A stretch of DNA of 32,000 nucleotides from Sulfolobus acidocaldarius DSM 639 (GTDB lineage Archaea; Thermoproteota; Thermoprotei_A; Sulfolobales; Sulfolobaceae): assembly GCF_000012285.1 (NCBI RefSeq), contig NC_007181.1, positions 90,001-122,000 on the forward strand. Reading direction: 5' to 3'. Made by a program: the position numbers and the translations under genes. This document shows positions 7,397-31,208 of this stretch, in pieces (the stretch's first letter is position 1; every line of letters begins with the position of its first letter). The notes beneath the pieces were generated by a model. That model ran no database searches, had not been told where the DNA came from, and was given only the letters and a program-made list of their open reading frames with translations.

Positions 7397-9625
7397 TTGT
7401 ATATTGGATTGATAAATACTATCAATTTTAATGAGGAATTTAGAAAAGCTTCAAACTACAACTATAGGCTTTTGAGCATTCATCTAGGTAATTGGGAAAA
7501 ATCGACATTCGATTTGTTACGGGTTTATAAGGAATTCAGGGAACCTGAGAAAGCATTGTATGCTTTTCACCCTTGGATAGAAGGTGCGAAAGATAGATTC
7601 TTTAAATTCAAGAAATATATCCCCAATCTCCTTGACCTGGATTACAGTAACTACGGCAAGATATTGGGAGGAACATATGATGTGGTCATATTAGACTTAA
7701 TGGATGACTTTAGACCCAATTATATTTCCGCACTTGTGGATTTAGTGAGGGGAGGAGGTTTAATAATAATGTACTCCGATGATCTCCAAAGAAACAAGCT
7801 TTACAAGAACTCCATCCAGAGGAACGGCATTGTGGACAATTATTTTGAGGAGAGGTTTCTTAGAATGGCTAAGTCTTATCCTGGGGTATTTCTCTTCGTC
7901 AACGATAACCTGGAAAGCTTTAACACATTTAAGACGGAGCAGCTTTCTATTATTAATTCCAAGTTAAATCCTAGAAAATCTATTATTAATTCTAAGTTAT
8001 ATAGCCTATGTTTGACCGATGATCAGGCGAAGGTCTTAGACGAGTCTCTGTTTATCTTGGAAGATGGAAGAAGAGTGTTAACCATCACTGCTCCAAGGGG
8101 AAGGGGTAAAAGCTCTTCTATAGGTTTATTCCTCTCACATTTGAGTACTCTTAACATCTCTTTAGATATCATTATAACTTCTCCTTCGTATTATTCCTCG
8201 ATAGAAATTATTTCTTTTCTGATAAAGGGTTTGGATCAGTTAGGTAAAAGATATTCCATAACTAGGTCTAGAGATGGCAAAGTAATGGGTATCATGTCTG
8301 GAGCTTTAAGAGTGAAATGGTTAGCCCCAGATGTGGCAAAAGATTATCAAGGAGATATAATAGTAGTAGACGAAGCCGCATCAATAGGCACTGAGACTTT
8401 AGATTATATAGTTAGAAGTTGGGAGAAAGTAATTCTCGTGACCACAATTCACGGATATGAGGGTACGGGCAAAGCCTTCTTAAAGTATCTTAATGGTCTT
8501 AGAGAGGATAAAAGTATAAAGTTTAAACATGTGACTTTAGAGAAACCTATAAGGTATGCTAAGGGAGACCCGATAGAGAGATTTATTTATGACGTTATGC
8601 TTCTAGATGCAGAACCTAAAAAAGAGAATGAAAACTTAGAATTCACAGAAATCGATAGAAAAGAACTATTTGAAAAGGATCATCTATTAAGGCAGGTTTA
8701 CGGAATTCTTGTCTCTGCACATTATAGGAATTCCCCAGACGACCTAATGATACTAGGAGATCATCATTTTCAACGTATTTTCTCATTAGGAAAGATTGCA
8801 GTTGCACAGGTTATAGAAGAGGGTGCACTGGAGAAAGGAGAAATAGATAGAATTTTGAATGGTAGTGGATTAGAAGGACATCTAATTCCTTATAAGCTTA
8901 CGCTATATGAGAGACTTCAGGAATTTGGAAAGTATAAGGGTTGGCGTATAATGAGAATTGCGGTTCAACCAGATGTTCAAAACAAGGGATTTGGTAGTAA
9001 ATTATTGAGGAGTGTGGTGGAGAGAGGTAAAAGAGAGGGTATTGATTGGATAGGCGCATCCTTTGTGGCTGATTATAGAGTAGTGAACTTCTGGCTTAAT
9101 AATGGTTTCACTCCTGTACATTTATCTAACAGAAAAAATGAAGGTCTTAACGGATATTCTATCGTAGTACTTAAAGCACTGAATGAGGCTATAGAGCCTA
9201 TAATTAACAGATTATCAGTATTACTCAGGTTTAAGATTTTGCATACAGCTCACCAGTTATACTTTAACGTTAATCCTCTTTTGCTCTCAAAAATCCTGAG
9301 GGGGACTAATATTGACAGTAAATCGTCTAACTATCCTGTAAGTTTCCCCAAGGAGTATTGTTATAAAATAGAATCCTATTTGAAGGGAATACTGGAATAT
9401 AATAGTGTTGCAGATGGAATTCACGCTGTTACTCAGTATTATTTTCTTTATCCAGATCACTTCTTGGAAGAAAGAGAGGAAGCAGTTTTAATAGCTAGGA
9501 CACTTCAGGGCAAAAGCTGGCATCATATTTCATTAAGTACTGGAATAGACAGGAGAGTAGTTGAAGAATACATGAGATCTTCTATAGACAAGATATATAT
9601 GAAATATTGTGATAGAGTGTTGTGA
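7397..9625 (+). CDS. tmcA: tRNA(Met) cytidine acetyltransferase (Nat10/TmcA family)
   Basis: Helicase-type Walker A APRGRGKSS and Walker B VVDEAA. GNAT acetyl-CoA motif RIAVQPDVQNKGFGSKLL. The longest ORF starts at TTG 7367, which lies inside the C/D sRNA. In-frame TTG codons at 7397 and 7409 are the first starts clear of the sRNA; the true start is uncertain. Confidence 0.85.
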   Translation: MYIGLINTINFNEEFRKASNYNYRLLSIHLGNWEKSTFDLLRVYKEFREPEKALYAFHPWIEGAKDRFFKFKKYIPNLLDLDYSNYGKILGGTYDVVILDLMDDFRPNYISALVDLVRGGGLIIMYSDDLQRNKLYKNSIQRNGIVDNYFEERFLRMAKSYPGVFLFVNDNLESFNTFKTEQLSIINSKLNPRKSIINSKLYSLCLTDDQAKVLDESLFILEDGRRVLTITAPRGRGKSSSIGLFLSHLSTLNISLDIIITSPSYYSSIEIISFLIKGLDQLGKRYSITRSRDGKVMGIMSGALRVKWLAPDVAKDYQGDIIVVDEAASIGTETLDYIVRSWEKVILVTTIHGYEGTGKAFLKYLNGLREDKSIKFKHVTLEKPIRYAKGDPIERFIYDVMLLDAEPKKENENLEFTEIDRKELFEKDHLLRQVYGILVSAHYRNSPDDLMILGDHHFQRIFSLGKIAVAQVIEEGALEKGEIDRILNGSGLEGHLIPYKLTLYERLQEFGKYKGWRIMRIAVQPDVQNKGFGSKLLRSVVERGKREGIDWIGASFVADYRVVNFWLNNGFTPVHLSNRKNEGLNGYSIVVLKALNEAIEPIINRLSVLLRFKILHTAHQLYFNVNPLLLSKILRGTNIDSKSSNYPVSFPKEYCYKIESYLKGILEYNSVADGIHAVTQYYFLYPDHFLEEREEAVLIARTLQGKSWHHISLSTGIDRRVVEEYMRSSIDKIYMKYCDRVL

Positions 9626-9662: not shown

Positions 9663-10643
9663 ATGAGACTCATATCTAAACTAATATTAATTTATTTCAT
9701 TATAGAATTAGCTATATTTATTGGTGTCTCCTCGATACCTTATAATAATCCAGCCCTAGTGCAGGAGTACAACTCAATGGAAAGTGGAATTTATTCCATG
9801 CCATACTTTAGTCAGGTAATTGAAATATTCTCTCATAACCTGTTAATAGCCACAATAGATTTCATCCCTGTTGTCGGTGCAATATTCTTTGGCATATCTA
9901 TTGGTCAGACTGCATATTTATTAAGCGTAGTTGCTACCAGCCGGAATGTGCCATCCTTTTTAGTTGCAATAGCACTCTTAACACTTCCTCACTCTGCTGT
10001 CGAATTACCAACTTATGCAATAGCAGTGGCTGCTGGTACGTATGTTATTGTAAAACGAAAGGATTGGAAAAGATATCTCCTCATGTATCCACTCATACCT
10101 ATTGAACTTTTCCTGGCTGCCCTTATTGAGTCCGCAATAATTACATATACAGGATTTAACCCATACGCATTATGGCCTGCATCCATAGGATCGTTACTTT
10201 TAGTATATTTTCTCTATCAAAGGATTCAGAAGTTTGCGGAATCATTAATTAAAACACAAAATATGCAACCTGTCTTAGCTGGAACATCAGCTTTAGGAAG
10301 TGTTCCTATTTATGCCTCTTATTATAATAATTTTAAGAACGTTATGTCACAGGCTATTCAGTACGAAGTTAGATCCGATTTCATTAACGCTGTGAACAAC
10401 TACTGGTTAGCTGTGATCTTTCTCATAGACGCCATAGCAACAAAAATGAATATGCCTTATTACACCAAACAAGATTTGGATAATGTTATAAGCTATCTAT
10501 CGCAGAGAGAGCCTGGATTATTTGACGACTATAATAGAGCTTTTCAGTACAAACTGAGTAATGACATACCACAGTTTCTACAGACAGTCAAAATTCTTAT
10601 TCCTAGACTAGATAGAATTTATGTGAGTCTACAGAATTTCTAA
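9663..10643 (+). CDS. SpoIIM-like (DUF95) membrane protein with a C-terminal soluble helical domain
   Basis: Multi-pass TM N-terminal region containing LPHSAVELPTYAIAVAAG, which matches the SpoIIM family LPHgxxElpa...aG block. About 120 C-terminal residues are hydrophilic and helical. Confidence 0.65.
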   Translation: MRLISKLILIYFIIELAIFIGVSSIPYNNPALVQEYNSMESGIYSMPYFSQVIEIFSHNLLIATIDFIPVVGAIFFGISIGQTAYLLSVVATSRNVPSFLVAIALLTLPHSAVELPTYAIAVAAGTYVIVKRKDWKRYLLMYPLIPIELFLAALIESAIITYTGFNPYALWPASIGSLLLVYFLYQRIQKFAESLIKTQNMQPVLAGTSALGSVPIYASYYNNFKNVMSQAIQYEVRSDFINAVNNYWLAVIFLIDAIATKMNMPYYTKQDLDNVISYLSQREPGLFDDYNRAFQYKLSNDIPQFLQTVKILIPRLDRIYVSLQNF

Positions 10644-13216: not shown

Positions 13217-13675
13217 TTAATGTGTAGATTCTGTTGTTTTCTTTTCTCTCATCAATCTCCTAAGCCAATTTAACACTTCCTCGTCATTATTATTTGATAA
13301 GTATTCTAAGTATCTTTCTAGGAATAGTTCGTAGGAACTAACGTTATACGTTTCCCTTATCCCTTTTAATGATGGAATTCTGCCGATCTTAAACGTATAT
13401 GACGTGTTTTTTCTCTTGGTAAACGTAATAACGGTAGTAAGTTTATCTGTGATTACTATTCTGGCTATTACATTACTCAGAAAGGATAAGGAGAATATAG
13501 TCTCATCCTTATTGCATGTAAATACTACGTTGTCATCAAATACTTTTAGTAAATTTTTTTCTTTTTTCTCCTTTACTATTACGTATCCCTGTTTTTCCAA
13601 TTCCCTCTTTATCTGCTCTACATCTTTGCTCTTCATCAATTCTTTTTCTTCAACCAGTATCCCGGGAAAATGCAC
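13217..13675 (-). CDS. Hypothetical protein (152 aa)
   Basis: Long ORF with normal charged and hydrophobic composition. The overlapping plus-strand ORF is S/L/F-rich, typical of a shadow frame. No motif recognised. Confidence 0.55.
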   Translation of the reverse strand: MHFPGILVEEKELMKSKDVEQIKRELEKQGYVIVKEKKEKNLLKVFDDNVVFTCNKDETIFSLSFLSNVIARIVITDKLTTVITFTKRKNTSYTFKIGRIPSLKGIRETYNVSSYELFLERYLEYLSNNNDEEVLNWLRRLMREKKTTESTH

Positions 13676-13861: not shown

Positions 13862-13869
13862 TTTAAATA
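13862..13869 (+). promoter_or_regulatory. TATA box (TTTAAATA) for the winged-helix regulator gene
   Basis: Sulfolobus-type TATA consensus centred about 26 nt upstream of the ATG at 13892, consistent with a leaderless transcript. Confidence 0.4.
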
Positions 13870-13891
13870 TGAGTATTTAAAATGAATTAAT

Positions 13892-14302
13892 ATGGAAATG
13901 GGATCTAGTAGATTTAATATTGAGTTTGAACCAGCCAAAGTTAGATTACCATCAGGAAAGGAAATAAGATTAATTGAGGCGTTGAAGTTCTGCTATGACA
14001 TATCAGATACAGATTTTCAGGTATTAAAAGCACTAATAGGAAGCGATGGAAAAAATGAGGACGATTTAGCAGAACAATTGAAATTATCTAAAGCCTCCAT
14101 AAACAGGAGCGTAAATAAGCTAGTTTCTTTAGGCTTTGTAGAGAGGATGAAGGATGTATCCTCTAAGGGAGGTAGACCAAAATATATTTACAGAAGTATA
14201 CCAGTTGATAAATTGATAGAGAGAATTACAGAGGACTTTAAACGATGTGCTGAGCTGTTCGGAGCGGTTTTACCCAAAGAATTAAAGTTTAGCCAGCAAT
14301 GA
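13892..14302 (+). CDS. MarR/TrmB-type winged-helix transcriptional regulator
   Basis: 136 aa. HTH region [29 protein letters not shown] followed by a basic wing (GGRPKYIY). Confidence 0.75.
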
Positions 14303-18773: not shown

Positions 18774-19628
18774 ATGTTAAAAGGCTCCATAATAACAGTC
18801 CTTGCTTCAACAGAAGCTGATGCCCTGAATATAGCTGAAAGATTAGGTAAAAGGGTTGAGTCAAGCATTTACTATAAGAAGTTTGGTGAACATATCAGGT
18901 CTATTCTTGTCCCTCAAAAGTTACTTGATCAAGCTGAGGCTCTAAGCGTATCATCCGCATTTTACTTGAAAATGAGCCAAATAACTTCTGTTGAGGGAGA
19001 ATTGGCTTTACTAGCAGAGGCTTCAGGACTGAAAGGTGTGGTACTCCCTCCAGAAGATAGTTCCGCATTTGAAAAAATCTTCAAGGATTTATCAATAGTT
19101 TCAATGGTTAGTAATGAATTTAAGGAAACAGATGGTGATGTGAACGATAAGGGTTATGTTTACGTTGATAGAGCATTTAATGTTAAGGGCGTTGGTACAG
19201 TAGTTTTAGGATTTTCGCTTACAGAAGTCAGACCTCACGACAAGTTGATAGCTTTGCCAATGAAGAAGGAGGTAGAGGTTAAGAGTATACAAGTTTTAGA
19301 TGAGGATCAGGAAGGGGTTTTGCCAGGTGTTAGAATAGGCTTTGCATTAAAGAATGTAAAGATCGAAGACATAGAGGGGGTAACAGCCTTAGTGAAGCCT
19401 AACATTAAGTTGGTCAACTCAATTCAAGGATTTACGAAGTTTAAGTGGACTTCAGATGCGGACTCAGTTCATGTAGTAGCAGGGGGCATTAAGACAATAG
19501 GAAAGATTGACGGTAATATCATTACCTTAAAAGACGAAATACCTATAACTGTAGGAAGAGTTATCTTACTAAATCTTAACGCTAAGCCCAAGAGTTCTAG
19601 GGTATATGGATATGCAGAGGTCAAATAA
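18774..19628 (+). CDS. SelB/EF-Tu domain II-like protein lacking a recognisable P-loop
   Basis: VDRAFNVKGVGTVVLGFSL...KSIQVLDEDQEGVLPGVRIGFALKNV matches the translation-factor domain II beta-barrel (SelB-like). No GxxxxGK[ST] is visible in the N-terminal ~130 aa. Confidence 0.6.
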   Translation: MLKGSIITVLASTEADALNIAERLGKRVESSIYYKKFGEHIRSILVPQKLLDQAEALSVSSAFYLKMSQITSVEGELALLAEASGLKGVVLPPEDSSAFEKIFKDLSIVSMVSNEFKETDGDVNDKGYVYVDRAFNVKGVGTVVLGFSLTEVRPHDKLIALPMKKEVEVKSIQVLDEDQEGVLPGVRIGFALKNVKIEDIEGVTALVKPNIKLVNSIQGFTKFKWTSDADSVHVVAGGIKTIGKIDGNIITLKDEIPITVGRVILLNLNAKPKSSRVYGYAEVK

Positions 19629-22369: not shown

Positions 22370-23017
22370 CTAATGAAATGGTGTTAATAGTTGTATCAAG
22401 ATTGTCCCAACAAAAGAAATGAAGAGATAAAGTACTACAAAATTTACGGCCAATATAGGCAATGCATATTTTATGAATTCTAGAAAGTTAAAGCCTTTTC
22501 CTCCTCTACTTTCTGAAGCCTCAGAAACTATAACATTACTGGCAGCCCCTAAAATAGTGAAGTTTCCAGCAATAGTGCTTCCTGCTGCTAACGCTAGCCA
22601 ATTCAATATACTTATTGCGCCTAACTTCTGCATTTCTTGTATGTATATAGCAACTAAAGGCACATTGCTGAGTATTTGACTTAAGACTACACTGGAAGCC
22701 ATTATGGTAGCTGTGTTAGTAGGTAATGGAACTATATGATATAAAGCATCCATTATTCCGCCCTTGACTAGACCTTCGGTAAATATGAACAGTCCTATGA
22801 AAAACACAATTACACTCCAATCAACCTTTTGAATTATTTCTCTTCTTTCTCTATTGACCAGTAATAAGATAGAGGAAGTTACTAGGGATGCTAGTACTAT
22901 ATCTATTCTGTAAATGCTTAAGACAAAAAATAGTATGATAGTAATTGCCAATAAAATAAGAGAAGAATAAGCCAATCTTTTGTTTTGTATCTGAATATTT
23001 CCAAGGTTATCGTCCAC
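22370..23017 (-). CDS. ArsB/NhaD (CitMHS) permease, C-terminal half (fragment of a split gene)
   Basis: Five to six TM helices. It continues the upstream ORF if one A of an A8 run is removed (see findings). Confidence 0.7.
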   Translation of the reverse strand: MDDNLGNIQIQNKRLAYSSLILLAITIILFFVLSIYRIDIVLASLVTSSILLLVNRERREIIQKVDWSVIVFFIGLFIFTEGLVKGGIMDALYHIVPLPTNTATIMASSVVLSQILSNVPLVAIYIQEMQKLGAISILNWLALAAGSTIAGNFTILGAASNVIVSEASESRGGKGFNFLEFIKYALPILAVNFVVLYLFISFVGTILIQLLTPFH

Positions 23018-23024
23018 AGTAATG

Positions 23025-23624
23025 TTAGAGAGTTTTTTTTCTAAAAATCAGAAGAAGGACGAAATAAGAAAGGATAAAATTTATCATAGTAGGTATTAGA
23101 AGAATAGCAACAAATATCAGAAAGGGAGTATTGGATTCTAGTAATATTAATAAGTTCTGAGGATTGCCAGTTGGCATCATTACACTACCTATTGTTACTC
23201 CAAATGCTAAAGCGTAAAGGAAGGGTAACTCATCGACTTTCATTGCCTTAGACGCTTCAAGAACGACAGGTGTCCAGCTTGATGATATACCGTCATTTGT
23301 AACCAAGTTGGAAAGGATTCCAGCGTAAAATAGAATATAGAAGAGAACCTTTTTTGGATCCTTATATCGAGAAACTAATTTGTATGCAAGAAATTTAAGA
23401 AATCCAGATACTTCTAACGCTGAAGAGAACATAAAAAGTGTCATGAGAAATAGAATTACATCTAAATTAACACTGGAGTAAGCTTCTTGTAGAGTTATTA
23501 CTCCTGTAACTATCATTAGGATTCCGCCAAAGAACATAGAAGCCCATAAAGGTACCTTAATAATACTCCTTGAAATGATCAATCCGTATGTTATTATGCC
23601 TATTATAAGAGCTATATATTCCAT
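23025..23624 (-). CDS. ArsB/NhaD (CitMHS) permease, N-terminal half (fragment of a split gene)
   Basis: Family-typical blocks SGFLKFLAYKL, LSNLVTND and PTGNPQNLLI. The ORF ends FRKKTL* immediately after the A8 run. Confidence 0.7.
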   Translation of the reverse strand: MEYIALIIGIITYGLIISRSIIKVPLWASMFFGGILMIVTGVITLQEAYSSVNLDVILFLMTLFMFSSALEVSGFLKFLAYKLVSRYKDPKKVLFYILFYAGILSNLVTNDGISSSWTPVVLEASKAMKVDELPFLYALAFGVTIGSVMMPTGNPQNLLILLESNTPFLIFVAILLIPTMINFILSYFVLLLIFRKKTL

Positions 23625-23659: not shown

Positions 23660-24820
23660 TTGTCGATAAACACAACTAACGTGAAGCTATTCATAGGGCA
23701 AGCATTCATAGTAGCCGGATCAACATTATTGTCTTTGCTTTATCCTTTAGTACTCTATGATCAGACTCACTCCACTGCTTTATTAGGAATAAGTATGATG
23801 CTAAATGAGTTAGCAGTGGGTTTAGGATCGTACGTATGGGGTAGGATAATTGATAGAGTGAGGGAAAGATACATATTCTTTATAATACTCCCTGTATCTG
23901 GTATTGGAATCACACTGTTAATCTTCGATACAAGTTTAGGTCTAGTGGGATATGCTCTGTTAGGATTTTTTACTGCCCTAGATTCACCTATATACTCCAT
24001 ATTATTGTTAGAGAGATTTTCCATGGATAAGGCTGTGGTCGCAAATTCCATGTTATCTCAGCTATCGTTGGCTGGAAATATAATAGGTAGTATAATGGGC
24101 ACATTTAAGTTAAAGTTCTTCACTATAATTATATTCTTTACAATCGCTGCTGTCTTAAATGCCATATTGATACCGAGGTATAAGGGGGATATAAGAGAGG
24201 ATAAGGTAGAGAGAATAAGGGATACTAGGAGGTTACTTAAACCTTTAATCTCTTATTCTATATTTAACCTTTCTGCAGAGGTCTTTTATGTGGTCTACAT
24301 CCCATTACTTAATTTGTTAACATTGCCTTCATGGACCTATTTCGTTAGCTACACTATACTGTATATGATAGATGAATACATTTACTACATCTCACCAAAT
24401 TTAGTTAGGGACAATGAATTATATTATATCTTTATTTCGATAGCTCTTAGAGGTTTTTTGGTAGCTTTAGTGGGGTATTTGCTCTTTATGAAGATTAATT
24501 TTAGCTTTCTTACTGTCTTGTTATTTATATCTTTTGGTAGTCTATACCCTCTATATAATACAGCGTTATTTTCTCTTATATTTAAGGATTTAAAGAAAAA
24601 TAGGGGATCCATATTAGGTCTCTTTAGTGCTGGAAATAACTTAGCATCTGCCATGGGTAGTTACCTCTCAGGATTGGTAAATCCGATGTCGATATCTCAA
24701 GCTTATTTCTTCAGTTTCTTCGGGTTTTCGTTATCGTTTTTTATAATGTATGACTACATTAGTGAAAAAAGACAAAGAGTTGAAAATAAAAAGAAAGTCA
24801 TCGTTTCTAATTCTACCTAG
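23660..24820 (+). CDS. MFS transporter
   Basis: About 12 predicted TM helices. The loop 2-3 motif WGRIIDRVRERY resembles the MFS GxxxDRxGRR. TTG start, with an alternative GTG at 23681. Confidence 0.8.
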   Translation: MSINTTNVKLFIGQAFIVAGSTLLSLLYPLVLYDQTHSTALLGISMMLNELAVGLGSYVWGRIIDRVRERYIFFIILPVSGIGITLLIFDTSLGLVGYALLGFFTALDSPIYSILLLERFSMDKAVVANSMLSQLSLAGNIIGSIMGTFKLKFFTIIIFFTIAAVLNAILIPRYKGDIREDKVERIRDTRRLLKPLISYSIFNLSAEVFYVVYIPLLNLLTLPSWTYFVSYTILYMIDEYIYYISPNLVRDNELYYIFISIALRGFLVALVGYLLFMKINFSFLTVLLFISFGSLYPLYNTALFSLIFKDLKKNRGSILGLFSAGNNLASAMGSYLSGLVNPMSISQAYFFSFFGFSLSFFIMYDYISEKRQRVENKKKVIVSNST

Positions 24821-25757
24821 TGGTAATTAGTTTCTTTCTTCTTAAAACTTCTTCATAATATTTCTTTTCTACTTCAGTTTCTGGTGTATAGCTAGGTACT
24901 CTTATGGGTTTTCCAGTTGAGTCAACCCTAACATAGGTGAAGTAACCTGTGGTTATGTGTTCTTTCATCATAGTTTTTGGATCTATTCGAATCACATTAA
25001 TCAGTGTTTCTATTGATGTATTTCCTACATATATTATTCCTGCTCTTATCTCCACGATATCGCCTAACCTAATTGGCGTATAGAAACTCATTCTATTGAC
25101 TGCAACGGTAACTACAGTTCCAGGTTCACTCTGTTTTATATATCTTCCACATAATACACCGCCTAGGTCATCCATCGCTTTAAGTAATTTTCCAGCAGAA
25201 ATTATCTTTCCGTCATAGGTCATGTCAGGTGTTATAAATATCTTTGACGACAATCTATATCTCAATCCTTCTGTAGGATCAGTGATATCAAACTTCTTTT
25301 CAACCCTGTCCTTAATATCTCTTTGTCTTTCATTTCTCCTTTGAATAGCCTTCTCCATTCTTCTCTTTTCCTCTTCCGTATCAGCGATCAGTTTGTTCTC
25401 TATTATTATGGGTTTGAATAAATCGTCTATTTTCACGTATGTACCTGTTGCTTCGACTAATGTCTCTTCGTCTCTTAAGGCTCTCATAGATACTTCTACA
25501 GAAGAGTTGCCTACATATTCTGCTTCCGCTTCCACTGCTATGTTATCTCCTAATGATATTGGTTTCTTAAATATAACGTCGTCAAGTGATGCTATAACCG
25601 CTAAACCTTTAGCCACCCTTATCGCTGACATCATTCCAGTATCCACTAGGAAGTTCAGCATTACACCTCCGTGCAGTCTACCTAGATAATTTATGTGCTC
25701 GTAATGAATTATTTTTAGTGAGGAGACCTTGGTTTCAGATATTCTCAAATATGACAC
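24813..25757 (-). CDS. Acyl-CoA thioesterase with tandem hotdog domains
   Basis: Two repeated hotdog modules, each with a G(N)xS(V/I)E central-helix/strand block (YVGNSSVEV and YVGNTSIET). N-terminal LHGGVMLNFLVDTG. GTG start overlaps the upstream small ORF by 23 nt. Confidence 0.8.
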   Translation of the reverse strand: MSYLRISETKVSSLKIIHYEHINYLGRLHGGVMLNFLVDTGMMSAIRVAKGLAVIASLDDVIFKKPISLGDNIAVEAEAEYVGNSSVEVSMRALRDEETLVEATGTYVKIDDLFKPIIIENKLIADTEEEKRRMEKAIQRRNERQRDIKDRVEKKFDITDPTEGLRYRLSSKIFITPDMTYDGKIISAGKLLKAMDDLGGVLCGRYIKQSEPGTVVTVAVNRMSFYTPIRLGDIVEIRAGIIYVGNTSIETLINVIRIDPKTMMKEHITTGYFTYVRVDSTGKPIRVPSYTPETEVEKKYYEEVLRRKKLITTR

Positions 25758-26127
25758 TATTAACTTGATCAGCCACTTCTAAATATTTTTTATCTATCTT
25801 GGAGTATTCAAGTAAATAATCCCTTAATTGACCCAATATTTGCTTCCAATTAGTTTTTATCACTTTAATAACATCTTCAGGTATTTCATTGTATTCTATT
25901 CTTTTGCTGTCTGCTGAAAATATTGGCAAATATTCTTCAAGTGATAAAGATATAATTACTACACCTCTTCTGTCCAATACATACTCATGAACACCCTTCT
26001 TTGTCAGTGATATTCCGTAATCGTCGGATGGGGGTAACAGTCTAGCAACTGTTTTAAGAAAATCTATTGTTGACTCTTTATCTCCTTTTAATTTCATTTT
26101 TTTAAGAACGTTCTGTAACTCACTCAT
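25735..26127 (-). CDS. Hypothetical 130-aa protein, third gene of the NurA-like/HerA-like module
   Basis: The ATG directly abuts the stop of the ATPase gene (TAAATG). Normal protein-like composition. No motif recognised. Confidence 0.6.
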   Translation of the reverse strand: MSELQNVLKKMKLKGDKESTIDFLKTVARLLPPSDDYGISLTKKGVHEYVLDRRGVVIISLSLEEYLPIFSADSKRIEYNEIPEDVIKVIKTNWKQILGQLRDYLLEYSKIDKKYLEVADQVNSVIFENI

Positions 26128-27948
26128 TTAACTCGCCTTTGACAAATCATAATGTCCTAATGGTGGAGGAACAGGTACTCGTATTTTAATTTTACCCTCC
26201 CTTAACCAGGGGGATATTAGGTAAGCCACTCCATTTTTTTCCCAACTCAATATTTTAGCTTCTATCTTCGACAAGCCTAAGGATTCTGCTACCTCTGGCT
26301 TTATTCTGAAAATGATCTTCGTATTTGCCAACTGTACTATTATATCTGATAGATCAGTTGGGTTATGGGTAGAGAATATAAAGCCAATTTTTCTTCTCCT
26401 ACCTAGCCTCATCATAGATGATATCTTTCCTGCCACTTTTCTAACATAGTTTGCGTCCTCTTCAGAACCTTTACCAGAGGGGAAGAATTTATGAGCCTCG
26501 TCGATTATCAATACAAGCCTTTCCTTTAACGAGCCTATTTTCATCTGAGCCTCCCTTATTTCAAATATTTTATCAAGAAAATAATAAGTTACAATTTTCT
26601 GAGCGAAGTCATCTAATTCGCTATTATAAAGATCTAGAATTAACAACTTTCTATCAGATGTCAGTAGTCTTCCTAAAGGTTCTCTCTTTACGCCCACGTC
26701 AAATAGACCTGTCGATCTGAGCAAATATAATCCTCTTAATATATTCTCCTTAGTGCTTTTGTGAATACTCAAATTATCCAAGTCATAATCCTCAAGAGAT
26801 TCAGTGAGGCTAGCTAGAGAATTGTAGTCTTTTCCTTTTCTCTTCAATAGAATCTTAAGAAATTGGGTAGCCTGCTCAGAGAAATAAGGATTTAGTCTAG
26901 GTAAAACTTTCTTTATCTCATCAAACTTAAAATAAAATGGAAATATTTCGACCTCAGATTTCCACTCACTGTTTGAGACTACTATTCTTCCCTCAGATAC
27001 ACTGTGGTAAAATTTGTATCCTTTTTTGGACAGGTAGTTTATCATTGGATATACGTAAAGTTTGAAATATGCATTTGTTATTGATAAAAGATCCTTGTTT
27101 CCGTTAGTGTATTTCCTGATCCACTTTCTTGATAGAGGGTAAATTATACTTAGATTTAATCCTGACAACTTAGGGTAAAGAGACTCGAAAAGGGCTAAAC
27201 TTTGACTTACGTTCTTGTCCGTTTTATCAGGCGGTAAAAAAACGTGATAATAGTCTCCTGTTGCATCAAAAACAAACACCTTAGTAAGCTCTGCTATTGA
27301 GTAAATACCTGCAATTACGTCTTTTACAAATGATGTTTTTCCTGCTCCAGTTGTCCCCAATATCAGTGTATGGTAGTTTAGGTCATCTAGGCTGATGCTC
27401 ACTTTTATATTGCCTACGTGATTATCTAAGTAGCCTAATCTCAAAAGACCTCTATTGGTATCTAGCGACCTCTCTATTACCTCTGCTCTAGGTAAAATAA
27501 CTGGTGATTGTGGCTCAACAACTAGGTCAGCTGACTCTGGCTCTGTAGACTCCAGAAAATTTACTTTAGTGAGCGGTTCACATTTAATTACCACGTTAGA
27601 TATTAGGGAGCCTGGTTCCTCTTCCCCTATTTCATTACTTGATATTATTGGCGAATCTGGATATAGTAATGACGACACGTCACTTCTCTCATATCCTATG
27701 ACTCTTAGCAGAACAAAGTACAAAGTCTTTATGTCAATAGCTCCCAATAAAACCCCGATCTTTCCCAAAAAAGGGTACTTATAATAAGTCACAGGATCAA
27801 TAACTACATTAACCTGCGTGTTGTTTTCATCAACCTTACTCGGAATTCCACGTGATACTCTTCCTATAATATCACCTAACGTGATAGCCAATGCCTTGGC
27901 TTTCTCTATCTGGTCTTTAATCTTCATCGAAAAATCTTCAGACAACAT
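26128..27948 (-). CDS. HerA/FtsK-superfamily ATPase (DUF87-type), enlarged paralog
   Basis: Walker A LILGTTGAGKTSF and Walker B LVLIIDEAHKFF. C-terminal GRRRKIGFIFSTHNPTDL...ANTKIIFRI is typical of HerA. The N-terminal ~190 aa is beta-rich, consistent with a HAS barrel. I prefer the ATG at 27948, which is preceded by GAGGTG-cttg, over the longer ORF start at 27990. Confidence 0.8.
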   Translation of the reverse strand: MLSEDFSMKIKDQIEKAKALAITLGDIIGRVSRGIPSKVDENNTQVNVVIDPVTYYKYPFLGKIGVLLGAIDIKTLYFVLLRVIGYERSDVSSLLYPDSPIISSNEIGEEEPGSLISNVVIKCEPLTKVNFLESTEPESADLVVEPQSPVILPRAEVIERSLDTNRGLLRLGYLDNHVGNIKVSISLDDLNYHTLILGTTGAGKTSFVKDVIAGIYSIAELTKVFVFDATGDYYHVFLPPDKTDKNVSQSLALFESLYPKLSGLNLSIIYPLSRKWIRKYTNGNKDLLSITNAYFKLYVYPMINYLSKKGYKFYHSVSEGRIVVSNSEWKSEVEIFPFYFKFDEIKKVLPRLNPYFSEQATQFLKILLKRKGKDYNSLASLTESLEDYDLDNLSIHKSTKENILRGLYLLRSTGLFDVGVKREPLGRLLTSDRKLLILDLYNSELDDFAQKIVTYYFLDKIFEIREAQMKIGSLKERLVLIIDEAHKFFPSGKGSEEDANYVRKVAGKISSMMRLGRRRKIGFIFSTHNPTDLSDIIVQLANTKIIFRIKPEVAESLGLSKIEAKILSWEKNGVAYLISPWLREGKIKIRVPVPPPLGHYDLSKAS

Positions 27949-29026
27949 CAAGCACCTCAAATTTGTTTCTGAAACTCTCCTGGACCCCAATTCTATCTAG
28001 CGAGAACATAATAAATCTCAGTATGCCTGACGACAATTCTTTTGCAGTCTTGTCTGCTACGGCTAAAGCCAAAGGTATTCCTTCAGTTGTGAATTTCAAG
28101 GAAGATAATCTATCTACAGCGTTTTTGCCTATTGATTCTATCCTGAGAATAGAGAATTTTGGTACGTATTTATGAATAGGATAAATCATGTAATTTACAA
28201 ATACTTTAACCCTTTCATTCACATCTTTAACAAGGGGTCCAATACATAACGTGGGATATGGTGGATTATAATTAAATCTAACAAACTGATACAAGTAAGC
28301 CTCATCTGATAAAAACCCACGAGGGTCCACCTTATATTTTGCTGTTAGTTCCTTATTACTAGATAAGGTTCTTATTAACAGGTCTGACTTGTCTATCCTT
28401 TTAACTACTCCAATAAAATTTTGATCTAAAATTGAAAGACGTTCATTTATGATTTTAGTTTTGACCCTCTCAGGGAGGTATACATAGGAGGGGAATAATG
28501 GTCCATCAACTAAGACTAAACCCTTATTTTTTAATACTTTCAAAGCTTCAGTTTCTAATATAGCTCTTAACTCAGTTTCTATTCTTTCAGGTTCTATTGT
28601 AGATTGGAAAGGTGTACCATCTAGCGAAAATGTCATAATGTACTTTGATGAATATAAGTACGGATTTATTGTTCCTTTAGAGTTCGATGAAGGGGCTAAG
28701 GCTATAAAGGGCTTCTGAATTTCTAATCCTTTTAAACCAAACAAACCTGGATAAACTCCGTACACAGGCTTGTTAGAAGAAGACACTGCAACTGTGGATA
28801 TACTTATTGTTCCACCGGCGGAAAAAATACTTCTACTACTACCATCTATTGCATAAACTTCCATATTTAGTCTGGTTGGAATTACCTCTTTTACGATATC
28901 GTTGGTAATTAGTGAGGCATCGCTTTCTTTAAAATCTCCCCTAGGAACATAAATATTGAAGTATTCTCTTATATATCTTTGTATTACTTCATTCAGTATT
29001 ACAGCAAGTTCATTGGTATTACTCAT
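27938..29026 (-). CDS. NurA-domain-like nuclease
   Basis: 362 aa. YAIDGSS and LVLVDGPLFP acidic motifs and a later IGVVKRIDKS block, in the order expected for NurA-domain proteins. The stop overlaps the ATPase start by 11 nt. Confidence 0.6.
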   Translation of the reverse strand: MSNTNELAVILNEVIQRYIREYFNIYVPRGDFKESDASLITNDIVKEVIPTRLNMEVYAIDGSSRSIFSAGGTISISTVAVSSSNKPVYGVYPGLFGLKGLEIQKPFIALAPSSNSKGTINPYLYSSKYIMTFSLDGTPFQSTIEPERIETELRAILETEALKVLKNKGLVLVDGPLFPSYVYLPERVKTKIINERLSILDQNFIGVVKRIDKSDLLIRTLSSNKELTAKYKVDPRGFLSDEAYLYQFVRFNYNPPYPTLCIGPLVKDVNERVKVFVNYMIYPIHKYVPKFSILRIESIGKNAVDRLSSLKFTTEGIPLALAVADKTAKELSSGILRFIMFSLDRIGVQESFRNKFEVLDVV

Positions 29027-29060: not shown

Positions 29061-29092
29061 TATGGCGTAATACCAATTAGTATTACCATATC

Positions 29093-30773: not shown

Positions 30774-31208
30774 ATGGAGAAAACAGGTTTTGAAAATTTA
30801 ACGAAGAAATTGGATGAGATAAGCGAGGCAGGTCTTAGTTTTAATGAAGCTGAGTTAATAAGATTCCTTAGATCTGAGGTTAAGAAGCAGAAGGGTTTGT
30901 TAGATTCCTTTAACGAGGCATTAGATTCCCAGAGATGGGAAGAAGCTCTATCGTCGTTTTTGTTGTTTACGCAGAGAGTTAATGTGGTATTCATTTATCT
31001 GTTTCAGCCTACCCACATCTCGTTATTAACAGGAAGTAAAATATCCTCATTACTTGAGGAGTATCTCTCAGCAACATCACTTTCAATATCTATGTCCCTT
31101 CTGAAATTAAGACCACATCTCAAGAAAATTGGAGTTGAAAGCATAACGACCTCAATTTTGTCAAACCCACCATCTCTTAACTTCAGTATGGTGATAAAGG
31201 GTGAGTAA
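30774..31208 (+). CDS. Hypothetical protein (coding strand and extent uncertain)
   Basis: The first ~70 codons look like a genuine helical protein (MEKTGFENLTKKLDEISEAGLSFNEAELIRFLRSEVKKQKG...). The last ~70 are S/L-rich and overlap a better-looking antisense ORF. The 3' end carries the SD for the downstream PGI/PMI gene. Confidence 0.35.
   Translation: MEKTGFENLTKKLDEISEAGLSFNEAELIRFLRSEVKKQKGLLDSFNEALDSQRWEEALSSFLLFTQRVNVVFIYLFQPTHISLLTGSKISSLLEEYLSATSLSISMSLLKLRPHLKKIGVESITTSILSNPPSLNFSMVIKGE

Follow-up and report, generated by a model that had tools for sequence, protein, structure and literature searches.

Three tightly packed open reading frames (ORFs) of Sulfolobus acidocaldarius DSM 639, all on the minus strand, encode a second NurA-HerA nuclease-translocase pair together with a small conserved protein. 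The three ORFs (saci_0148, saci_0147, and saci_0146) occupy positions 25735-29026 of the 32-kb stretch that we analyzed (contig NC_007181.1, positions 90,001 to 122,000 of the forward strand; hereafter the window, within which all positions are counted). The module belongs to the NurA and HerA families, and neither to the canonical end-resection operon nor to any defined defense system. Our preferred reading, which we hold with fair confidence although well short of certainty, is that Saci_0148-0147-0146 is a chromosomal, vertically inherited HerA-NurA paralogue: a housekeeping, conditionally used machine that processes host DNA ends or intermediates, and not a mobile anti-virus system. The module is not a new kind of system and probably not a new defense system. 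An earlier note on this DNA had called it the best candidate for an undescribed system. "Undescribed" was overstated, since the genes fall into the existing arCOG00287, arCOG00284, and arCOG05897, and at least four papers name the pair, although none of them deals with its function. What our analysis adds is a third, coupled gene that is found order-wide and has no detectable structural relative, a conserved arrangement of aCcr1 box and TATA box, a related pair in the Desulfurococcales, and evidence against a mobile-defense origin.

The ORFs are genuine genes rather than chance reading frames, since their products have exact matches in public collections (AAY79569, AAY79568, and AAY79567 for Saci_0148, Saci_0147, and Saci_0146, all from S. 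acidocaldarius), the Pfam scores of Saci_0148 and Saci_0147 lie above cut-off, and all three have conserved orthologues. In the gene table of the S. islandicus essential-genome study, the orthologues of Saci_0148 are SSO2284, SiRe_0094, and M164_0095; Saci_0147 is annotated as HerA helicase (SSO2285, SiRe_0095, M164_0096) and Saci_0146 as "Uncharacterized conserved protein" (SSO2286, SiRe_0096, M164_0097). The SiRe_0094/SiRe_0095 pair (also SiL_0094/0095) is thus directly orthologous to ours; SiRe_0096 and the flanking genes are shared, and nothing structural differs. Published work on that pair consists of promoter binding by Csa3a and aCcr1 and of transposon sequencing (Tn-seq) only, and the small gene is not discussed as part of a module.

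The junctions between the genes are tight. The TGA of saci_0148 (27940-27938) lies downstream of the saci_0147 ATG (27948-27946), an 11-nucleotide (nt) gene overlap, and the stop of saci_0147 and the start of saci_0146 read TAAATG with zero spacing. The ATPase start is preceded by a Shine-Dalgarno-like element within the last codons of the nuclease gene (Table 1); Shine-Dalgarno sequences are used by internal operon genes in Sulfolobus. The earlier note had read this arrangement (three packed minus-strand genes, the 11-nt overlap, GAGGTG at 4 nt, TAAATG) from the letters, and the sequence agrees with it; the peptide motifs that it quoted are likewise all present in Saci_0148 and Saci_0147.

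Saci_0148 gives a strong match to the Pfam NurA model PF09376 (106.3 bits against a cut-off of 21; E = 2.3e-30) that spans model positions 2-253 of 254, which bears out the NurA-like nuclease proposed earlier. Its motifs YAIDGSS and LVLVDGPL contribute D61 and D174. D61, E158, and D174 do not vary among 73 NurA-like sequences from related loci, 71 of which also have D325; R154, K209, and R210 are likewise invariant. The conserved D-E-D-D residues, which by motif similarity would correspond to the metal-binding acidic residues (D...E...D...D/H) of the RNase H-like NurA active site, are consistent with an active metal-dependent nuclease, as predicted from sequence. Solved NurA structures exist (e.g., the P. 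furiosus NurA crystal structure), and no chain in the PDB matched Saci_0148 at E ≤ 1, either with the single sequence or with a 15-member family profile. Its best PADLOC match is the "Type III coevolved" NurA model (E = 4.7e-17).

The product of saci_0147 matches the Pfam models DUF87/HerA (PF01935; E = 1.3e-15, 58.6 bits against a cut-off of 23.2) and HerA_C (PF05872; E = 2.3e-07), and its best PADLOC match is again a "Type III coevolved" model, that for HerA (E = 2.6e-41). The protein carries a Walker A motif, GTTGAGKTS (K204), and a Walker B motif, LIIDEAH (D483/E484), followed by GRRRKIGFIFSTHNP. Among 25 homologues, K204, D483/E484, and the arginines R514, R517, and R519 are invariant, as is the RLGRRRKIGF / STHNP block, which aligns with REGRKFG...SQRP of solved HerAs. 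The AlphaFold2 model (predicted local distance difference test [pLDDT] score 86) places an N-terminal helix and beta-barrel (residues ~1-153, the barrel ~25-153) before a RecA-like core, with an insertion at ~229-440 between Walker A and Walker B that comprises a small beta unit and helices (helical at ~342-412). Foldseek matches this model over its full length to the HerAs of T. kodakarensis (from the NurA complex), S. solfataricus, and D. radiodurans (E ~1e-21 to 1e-23), with probability 1.0, template modeling (TM) scores of 0.5-0.7, and identities of only ~12-17%. The HerA subunits of DUF4297-HerA, Sir2-HerA, and TdpAB are also matched (E ~1e-19 to 1e-22). Taken together, the sequence and the predicted model look like those of a deep, separate branch of the HerA family.

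In Saci_0147, 280 residues separate Walker A from Walker B, as the earlier note had estimated. Alignments give a spacing of 202 for the HerA of S. solfataricus and 250 for that of T. kodakarensis, and solved HerA chains run from 500 to 696 amino acids (aa). Saci_0147 therefore lies within the range of solved HerAs in size and spacing, and the large insertion claimed relative to typical HerA proteins holds only in comparison with Sulfolobus HerA; we reject the idea of an unusually enlarged HerA.

The canonical HerA-NurA system (SSO2251/SSO2248; PDB 9x1l/9x1m; the saci_0053 operon) resembles our pair in several respects. In both, the two families are adjacent and translationally coupled; the Saci_0147 model superposes on canonical HerA over the whole length, sharing both Walker motifs and the arginine block, and both nucleases have a NurA domain with conserved acidic residues. 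The differences are more extensive. The canonical herA of S. acidocaldarius is saci_0053, away from Saci_0148-0146, and its operon includes mre11 and rad50, both of which are missing from our locus: no Mre11 or Rad50 family is matched by any of the 29 window ORFs that are 110 aa or longer, three of which had no hit at E ≤ 1e-5 and one none at E ≤ 0.001. The arCOGs are distinct (00284/00287 for our pair, 00280 for herA and 00367 for nurA in the canonical set). Structural-alignment identity to canonical HerA is ~15%, with a Walker spacing of 280 compared with 202-250, and the Saci_0148 family is undetectable against solved NurAs. By sequence, Saci_0147 matches S. solfataricus HerA (4d2i) at only E ~1e-6, and it scores 44.2 and 42.8 bits against the NCBIfam HerA equivalogs NF040819 and NF040937, whose cut-offs are 970 and 800; Saci_0147 is therefore not an orthologue of canonical HerA. 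In S. islandicus, the canonical nurA-rad50-mre11-herA set (M164_0062-0065) is essential, whereas M164_0095 and M164_0096 took 9 and 21 transposon insertions and are non-essential by Tn-seq, the small gene being left unassigned (essential-genome study). Finally, the 130-aa gene and the aCcr1-controlled promoter are extra features relative to the canonical operon. The earlier proposal of a second, paralogous pair without Mre11/Rad50 is thus upheld, and our locus is not the sole pair in the genome.

Crenarchaea carry several NurA-HerA pairs. A third S. islandicus cluster, M164_0014-0017, encodes a NurA-like nuclease (arCOG07312, SSO2197), an SMC-like protein (SiRe_0016), and a HerA (SSO2200). In the portion of the gene table that was available, no S. 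acidocaldarius orthologue is given for the nuclease or the HerA of this cluster, and S. acidocaldarius may therefore have only two NurA-HerA sets.

A scan of one genome per species gave 80 loci, among them 18 complete Sulfolobales loci and ~60 Desulfurococcales loci. The Saci_0147 ATPase is present in every Sulfolobales genus sampled (Sulfolobus, Sulfurisphaera, Stygiolobus, Saccharolobus, Acidianus, Metallosphaera, Sulfuracidifex, Aramenus, and HS-7), with 49-76% identity and full-length sequences of 584-609 aa. Nearly all of the 18 complete loci retain the gene order oxidoreductase, NurA-like, HerA-like, small protein, thioesterase, a fixed five-gene synteny and not the variable region that the earlier note had considered; the triad itself is kept as a unit across the Sulfolobales. 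The NurA/HerA junction in these loci is mostly a 4-nt overlap, and overlaps of 4-8 nt recur, also in many Desulfurococcales loci.

In the Desulfurococcales the ATPase is 30% identical and 600-680 aa long. At most of these loci a NurA-like ORF of ~330-480 aa lies directly upstream, the junction ranging from an overlap of a few nucleotides to a gap of ~80 nt; a sequence search confirmed the NurA assignment for only a part of them. The Desulfurococcales pair has no small-protein homologue within 6 kb and no accompanying thioesterase. Four Desulfurococcaceae loci (L046, L048, L052, and L058) have a second NurA-domain gene directly after the pair, at ~8030-9280 (Pfam E = 1.8e-22 in L046), and in L058 a second HerA-like ORF follows as well, giving tandem paralogous pairs. 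An ORF of ~620 aa downstream of some Desulfurococcales pairs was considered as a third subunit and rejected, as it has the look of a GlmS-type glutamine-fructose-6-phosphate aminotransferase (judged by eye).

We found no indication of mobility. A tblastn search with the ATPase matched none of 72,556 plasmids and 50,697 phage records, nor do the viral contigs of IMG/VR contain a relative. The window contains housekeeping genes (fumarase, ThiC, TmcA, a PibD-type peptidase, transporters, and oxidoreductases), the pair itself being flanked by a CoA-disulfide/sulfur oxidoreductase and an acyl-CoA thioesterase. The G+C content at the locus is ordinary. Within the window we found no CRISPR array, tRNA, Rfam match, or tandem repeat, and no cas, csm6, Sir2, DUF4297, tdpC, modification, integrase, or mobile-element gene. 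The synteny, the constant ATPase, the lack of mobile relatives, and the housekeeping neighbors therefore indicate a vertically inherited core module and not a defense island.

The three genes appear to share one promoter. The TATA box TTTAAATA at 29060-29053 is the sole match to TTTAWATA on the minus strand between 25700 and 29100, in agreement with the earlier note, which had placed a promoter box before the first gene only. Since the box ends 26 nt from the ATG, a leaderless or near-leaderless transcript is predicted. Just upstream lies a perfect palindrome, GTAATAC-N6-GTATTAC, that includes AGTATTA on the plus strand (29079-29085), the published binding motif of the cell-cycle regulator aCcr1 (PMC9976892). 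The heptamer alone occurs 15 times in the window, against 13 expected, and is thus not enriched. Across genera, a GTAWTAC box at about -47 abuts a conserved ATATTTAAATAT (an extended TATA box) in 14 of 17 Sulfolobales orthologous promoters, and the promoter footprint is located at about -60 to -30 from the NurA-like start (loci L001-L018). The three promoters without the box include two (L011 and L016) in which the longest-ORF rule clearly set the start too far upstream.

Published data agree that this promoter is a target of aCcr1. In S. islandicus, the promoter of the orthologue is recorded as having the box and is down-regulated upon overexpression of aCcr1/gp21 (PMC9976892), and the saci_0148 promoter is among the aCcr1-associated promoters of genes that are strongly down-regulated when aCcr1 is overexpressed (bioRxiv 10.64898/2026.09.06.749720). 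A second regulator, the CRISPR regulator Csa3a, binds two sites in the S. islandicus SiRe_0094 promoter in electrophoretic mobility shift assays, and the SiRe_0095 protein rises when csa3a is overexpressed (PMC5587795).

The small protein, Saci_0146, has no match in Pfam, PADLOC, or NCBIfam, although one UniRef entry of its family carries the label DUF5858. The family comprises 39 clusters at 90% identity, is confined to Thermoproteota, and yields just 20 cluster representatives at E ≤ 1e-3 among 1.84 billion proteins, its true members measuring 123-148 aa. The invariant residues fall in two loops, LPPSDD and DEYLP, and at a few strand positions. The AlphaFold2 model (pLDDT 88.6; predicted TM score 0.79) has an alpha2-beta4-alpha3 layout, with two helices, a four-stranded meander, and three helices, and a Foldseek search of it against the PDB and BFVD returned nothing below E = 0.04. 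Orthologues are present at 17 of the 18 Sulfolobales loci, so the extra small protein of the earlier note is borne out and is conserved, and in 14 loci the distance from the ATPase stop to its start is 12 nt or less, overlaps included. Its isoelectric point of 5.9 (family median 5.7) compares with 9.0 for Saci_0148 and 8.9 for Saci_0147; because the small protein is mildly acidic and the nuclease and ATPase are basic, protein binding is favored over DNA binding. Two further ideas were considered and rejected. The protein is not a domain detached from the longer ATPases or nucleases of the Desulfurococcales, in which a hidden Markov model finds nothing even at E ≤ 10; nor did we find fusions, given the narrow length range of true members, the single 1250-aa match being a repetitive match to one helix.

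We also scanned metagenomes for relatives of the small protein, the query being a four-member divergent subfamily. In contig Ga0209289_100007 (L081, 4241-5423), a distant homologue overlaps the 3' end of a gene for an ERCC4/XPF-type nuclease (Pfam ERCC4, E = 2.5e-17). The family is thereby tied to a DNA nuclease a second time, independently; the neighbors are unrelated in the other loci of the subfamily.

Family membership, conserved catalytic motifs, gene coupling, synteny, non-essentiality, and regulator binding rest on the results above or on published work. How the proteins assemble and in what numbers, which substrate they act on, what the small protein does, and which cellular process is served are pictured here by analogy. 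In the 2.8-Å cryo-electron microscopy structure of T. kodakarensis HerA6-NurA2, NurA docks on the HAS domain and double-stranded DNA (dsDNA) enters the HerA ring (PMC12977600). By analogy with such complexes, a ring of Saci_0147 would pump dsDNA through its central channel and hand it to a Saci_0148 dimer docked on the N-terminal barrel face of the ATPase, where the nuclease would cut it with the conserved D-E-D-D metal site. The overlapping and abutting stop and start codons may couple translation, such that the subunits would be made together. Saci_0146 would be a Sulfolobales-specific add-on, most likely an adaptor or regulator that binds the basic nuclease-ATPase complex and not DNA. The operon would be transcribed from a single leaderless-type promoter that aCcr1 would shut off through the conserved box beside TATA. 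The module is dispensable for growth, and would most likely act in conditional processing of chromosomal DNA ends or intermediates.

Several points weigh against this reading. The assignment of D61, E158, D174, and D325 to the active site depends on the Pfam alignment and motif similarity only, because the family profile finds no solved NurA. Both enzymes have PADLOC "Type III coevolved" models as best matches, although these models may simply be the nearest archaeal NurA and HerA profiles, and the binding of Csa3a hints at a link to immunity. According to PMC9976892, an earlier microarray classed the S. acidocaldarius gene as non-cyclic, and cell-cycle gating of expression is for this reason not established. 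As for the small protein, its orthologue is displaced by ~180, 370, and 1800 nt in three Sulfolobales loci, the gene is not at the locus in HS-7 (L014), and the divergent subfamily does not adjoin NurA/HerA genes in the 29 hot-spring metagenome loci. The linkage to the pair is therefore a Sulfolobales feature, and Saci_0146 may not be an obligate subunit.

These last observations bear most directly on the possibility that the functional unit is the NurA-HerA pair only, the 130-aa gene being, like the thioesterase, a neighbor that synteny has kept and that has an unrelated role. We regard this as a serious possibility, if still an unlikely one. The coupled Desulfurococcales pair manages with no small-protein homologue within 6 kb, and distant homologues stand alone elsewhere, one of them beside the ERCC4 nuclease gene; the HS-7 locus and the three displaced loci fit as well, and synteny holds just as well for the oxidoreductase and thioesterase on either side, whose functions are clearly unrelated. 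Close spacing in 14 of 18 Sulfolobales loci and zero spacing in S. acidocaldarius speak for a three-gene unit, however, as do the lack of a separate TATA box before saci_0146 and the persistence of the arrangement across genera whose ATPases are just 49-76% identical.

The earlier note had suggested a virus or plasmid defense system. In an innate system of this kind, the ATPase would load on foreign DNA ends and feed the nuclease, and the small protein would be a sensor or inhibitor. HerA-family ATPases do scaffold the bacterial Sir2-HerA, DUF4297-HerA, and TdpAB complexes, which are among our Foldseek matches (PMC11291478, PMC11514289) and which, like our pair, combine a HerA-fold ATPase with an effector encoded next door. 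Their effector, however, is Sir2 or DUF4297 rather than NurA, no phosphorothioate-modification gene adjoins our pair, and those systems are island-borne, whereas our module is core-genomic and vertically inherited; against the NCBIfam equivalogs for anti-phage HerA (cut-offs 800-850), Saci_0147 scores only 35.6 and 18.5 bits. The best PADLOC matches are the models of HerA and NurA coevolved with CRISPR type III, and a CRISPR-linked nurA-csm6-herA paralogue exists in Pyrobaculum. That Thermoproteales cluster (PAE0122-PAE0128) is, like ours, a non-canonical archaeal NurA-HerA paralogue, but it has csm6 and a CRISPR link, while our locus has no csm6/CARF gene, cas gene, or array nearby, and its third gene is unrelated. 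The T. kodakarensis study suggests that HerA-NurA may destroy foreign dsDNA (PMC12977600), and non-essentiality of both enzyme genes and Csa3a binding at the orthologous promoter would also suit a defense role. Against it stand the position and neighbors, which are fixed in all Sulfolobales genera sampled, and the retention of the pair in the Desulfurococcales; the ATPase, constant in length and consistent in its identities with vertical descent, has no relatives on plasmids, phages, or IMG/VR contigs. The window holds no partner, mobile-element, tRNA, or CRISPR feature, and the promoter is governed by a cell-cycle repressor. We therefore consider defense unlikely.

In a more speculative version of host DNA processing, the module could pump and cut host chromosomal DNA around division, under cell-cycle control. 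It would be expressed along with the division-phase genes that aCcr1 represses and be off at G1/S, and it might clear away or resolve DNA trapped where the cell divides, or handle intermediates of segregation or termination; the small DUF5858-type protein would target or license it. Were this so, it would fulfill an old prediction of a HerA-type ATPase as the archaeal counterpart of FtsK. We give the idea little weight.

A published hypothesis for SiRe_0094/0095 holds that the pair helps CRISPR type I-A spacer acquisition by degrading DNA at ends or forks to supply prespacers, in analogy to RecBCD. Csa3a binding at the SiRe_0094 promoter and the rise of SiRe_0095 protein (PMC5587795) are the basis for it, and the PADLOC similarity to CRISPR-coevolved HerA and NurA models is compatible with it. 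Csa3a also binds the promoters of canonical herA, dpo2, and smc (PMC5587795), however, and the effect is therefore not specific to this pair. The pair adjoins no cas genes or arrays in the window, and the Desulfurococcales pair shows no sign of CRISPR linkage in the ORFs inspected. All told, such a helper role seems quite improbable.

Very improbable, in our view, is a motor for DNA donation or transfer, in which the ATPase would move chromosomal DNA in or out during Ups/Ced exchange and the nuclease would process the transferred DNA. The model for this is Thermus thermophilus, in which TdtA, a HerA-like ATPase, and an adjacent NurA-like nuclease, both outside classical double-strand-break repair, are both needed for transjugation (PMC5365140). 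The Thermus operon, however, is part of an integrative element that also has an integrase and a restriction enzyme; our locus has none of these. Saci_0147 has weak NCBIfam similarity to CedD, CedB, and VirB4-type ATPases, but scores of 44 (CedD) and 22 bits (CedB) compare with cut-offs of 600-700, and we reject its identification as CedD or CedB. No membrane or pilus genes are in the operon, and the pair is kept also in the Desulfurococcales, for which we know of no Ups/Ced system. The searchable literature names Saci_0146-0148 only in the two aCcr1 studies, and hence not in the body text of two papers that describe new Ced/Ups components. Lastly, the reading of the locus as the canonical repair pair merely split from mre11/rad50, for which the labeling of saci_0148 as "nurA" among DNA repair nucleases in a preprint might be cited (bioRxiv 10.64898/2026.09.06.749720), is refuted by saci_0053, by the two S. 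islandicus sets with their different arCOGs and essentiality, and by the weak or absent matches to canonical proteins.

Of the several NurA-HerA pairs of Crenarchaea, the Mre11/Rad50-linked one alone has been studied, and its role in end resection is now questioned (PMC12977600). The second pair is kept across two orders and dispensable for growth, and its promoter is bound by aCcr1 and, in S. islandicus, by Csa3a. Its function would inform how Sulfolobales share DNA-processing work among paralogous motors, whether a HerA-type pump serves chromosome handling at division, and what a small Thermoproteota-restricted protein with a predicted new fold contributes. The module sits in genetically tractable model organisms, so these questions are directly testable.

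The packed run of genes is not obviously limited to three, since saci_0145 overlaps the 3' end of saci_0146 by 23 nt (25735-25757). Saci_0145 may be a co-transcribed neighbor or fourth cistron, although its membership of the module is doubtful. Overlaps of this type, of 13-23 nt, recur in the majority of the Sulfolobales genera sampled, among them Stygiolobus, Acidianus, and Metallosphaera, and in S. islandicus, where the overlap is annotated. Alternatively, a AAAAATATTT stretch at 25781-25790, ~29 nt upstream of the saci_0145 GTG, could be an internal leaderless promoter.

Table 1. Genes and regulatory elements of the Saci_0148-0146 locus (window coordinates)
Feature	Position	Strand	Remarks
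Palindromic aCcr1-type box pair GTAATAC-N6-GTATTAC	29086-29067	-	Perfect palindrome just upstream of TATA box
TATA box TTTAAATA	29060-29053	-	Ends 26 nt before Saci_0148 ATG
Saci_0148, NurA-family nuclease, non-canonical	27938-29026	-	362 aa; arCOG00287; Pfam NurA
Shine-Dalgarno-like GAGGTG	27957-27952	-	4 nt before ATPase ATG, in last codons of Saci_0148
Saci_0147, HerA-family ATPase (predicted hexameric type)	26128-27948	-	606 aa; arCOG00284
Saci_0146, conserved protein	25735-26127	-	130 aa; arCOG05897; no family match
Saci_0145, double hot-dog acyl-CoA thioesterase	24813-25757	-	Pfam 4HBT, E = 2e-22

Elsewhere in the window, four ORFs of 144-326 aa have no Pfam match: 9663-10643 (+), 13217-13675 (-), and 18774-19628 (+), all at E ≤ 1e-5, and 30774-31208 (+) at E ≤ 0.001. 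Two adjacent minus-strand ORFs in different frames, 22370-23017 and 23025-23624, match the two halves of the CitMHS citrate-transporter model (positions 196-332 and 8-185, respectively) and represent a frameshifted pseudogene or a split gene. At 13862-13881, a pair of TTTAAATA boxes, one on each strand and separated by 5 nt, occupies the intergenic region between a 152-aa ORF (13217-13675, minus strand) and a gene for a TrmB/MarR-type regulator (13892-14302, plus strand), in what looks like a compact divergent promoter.

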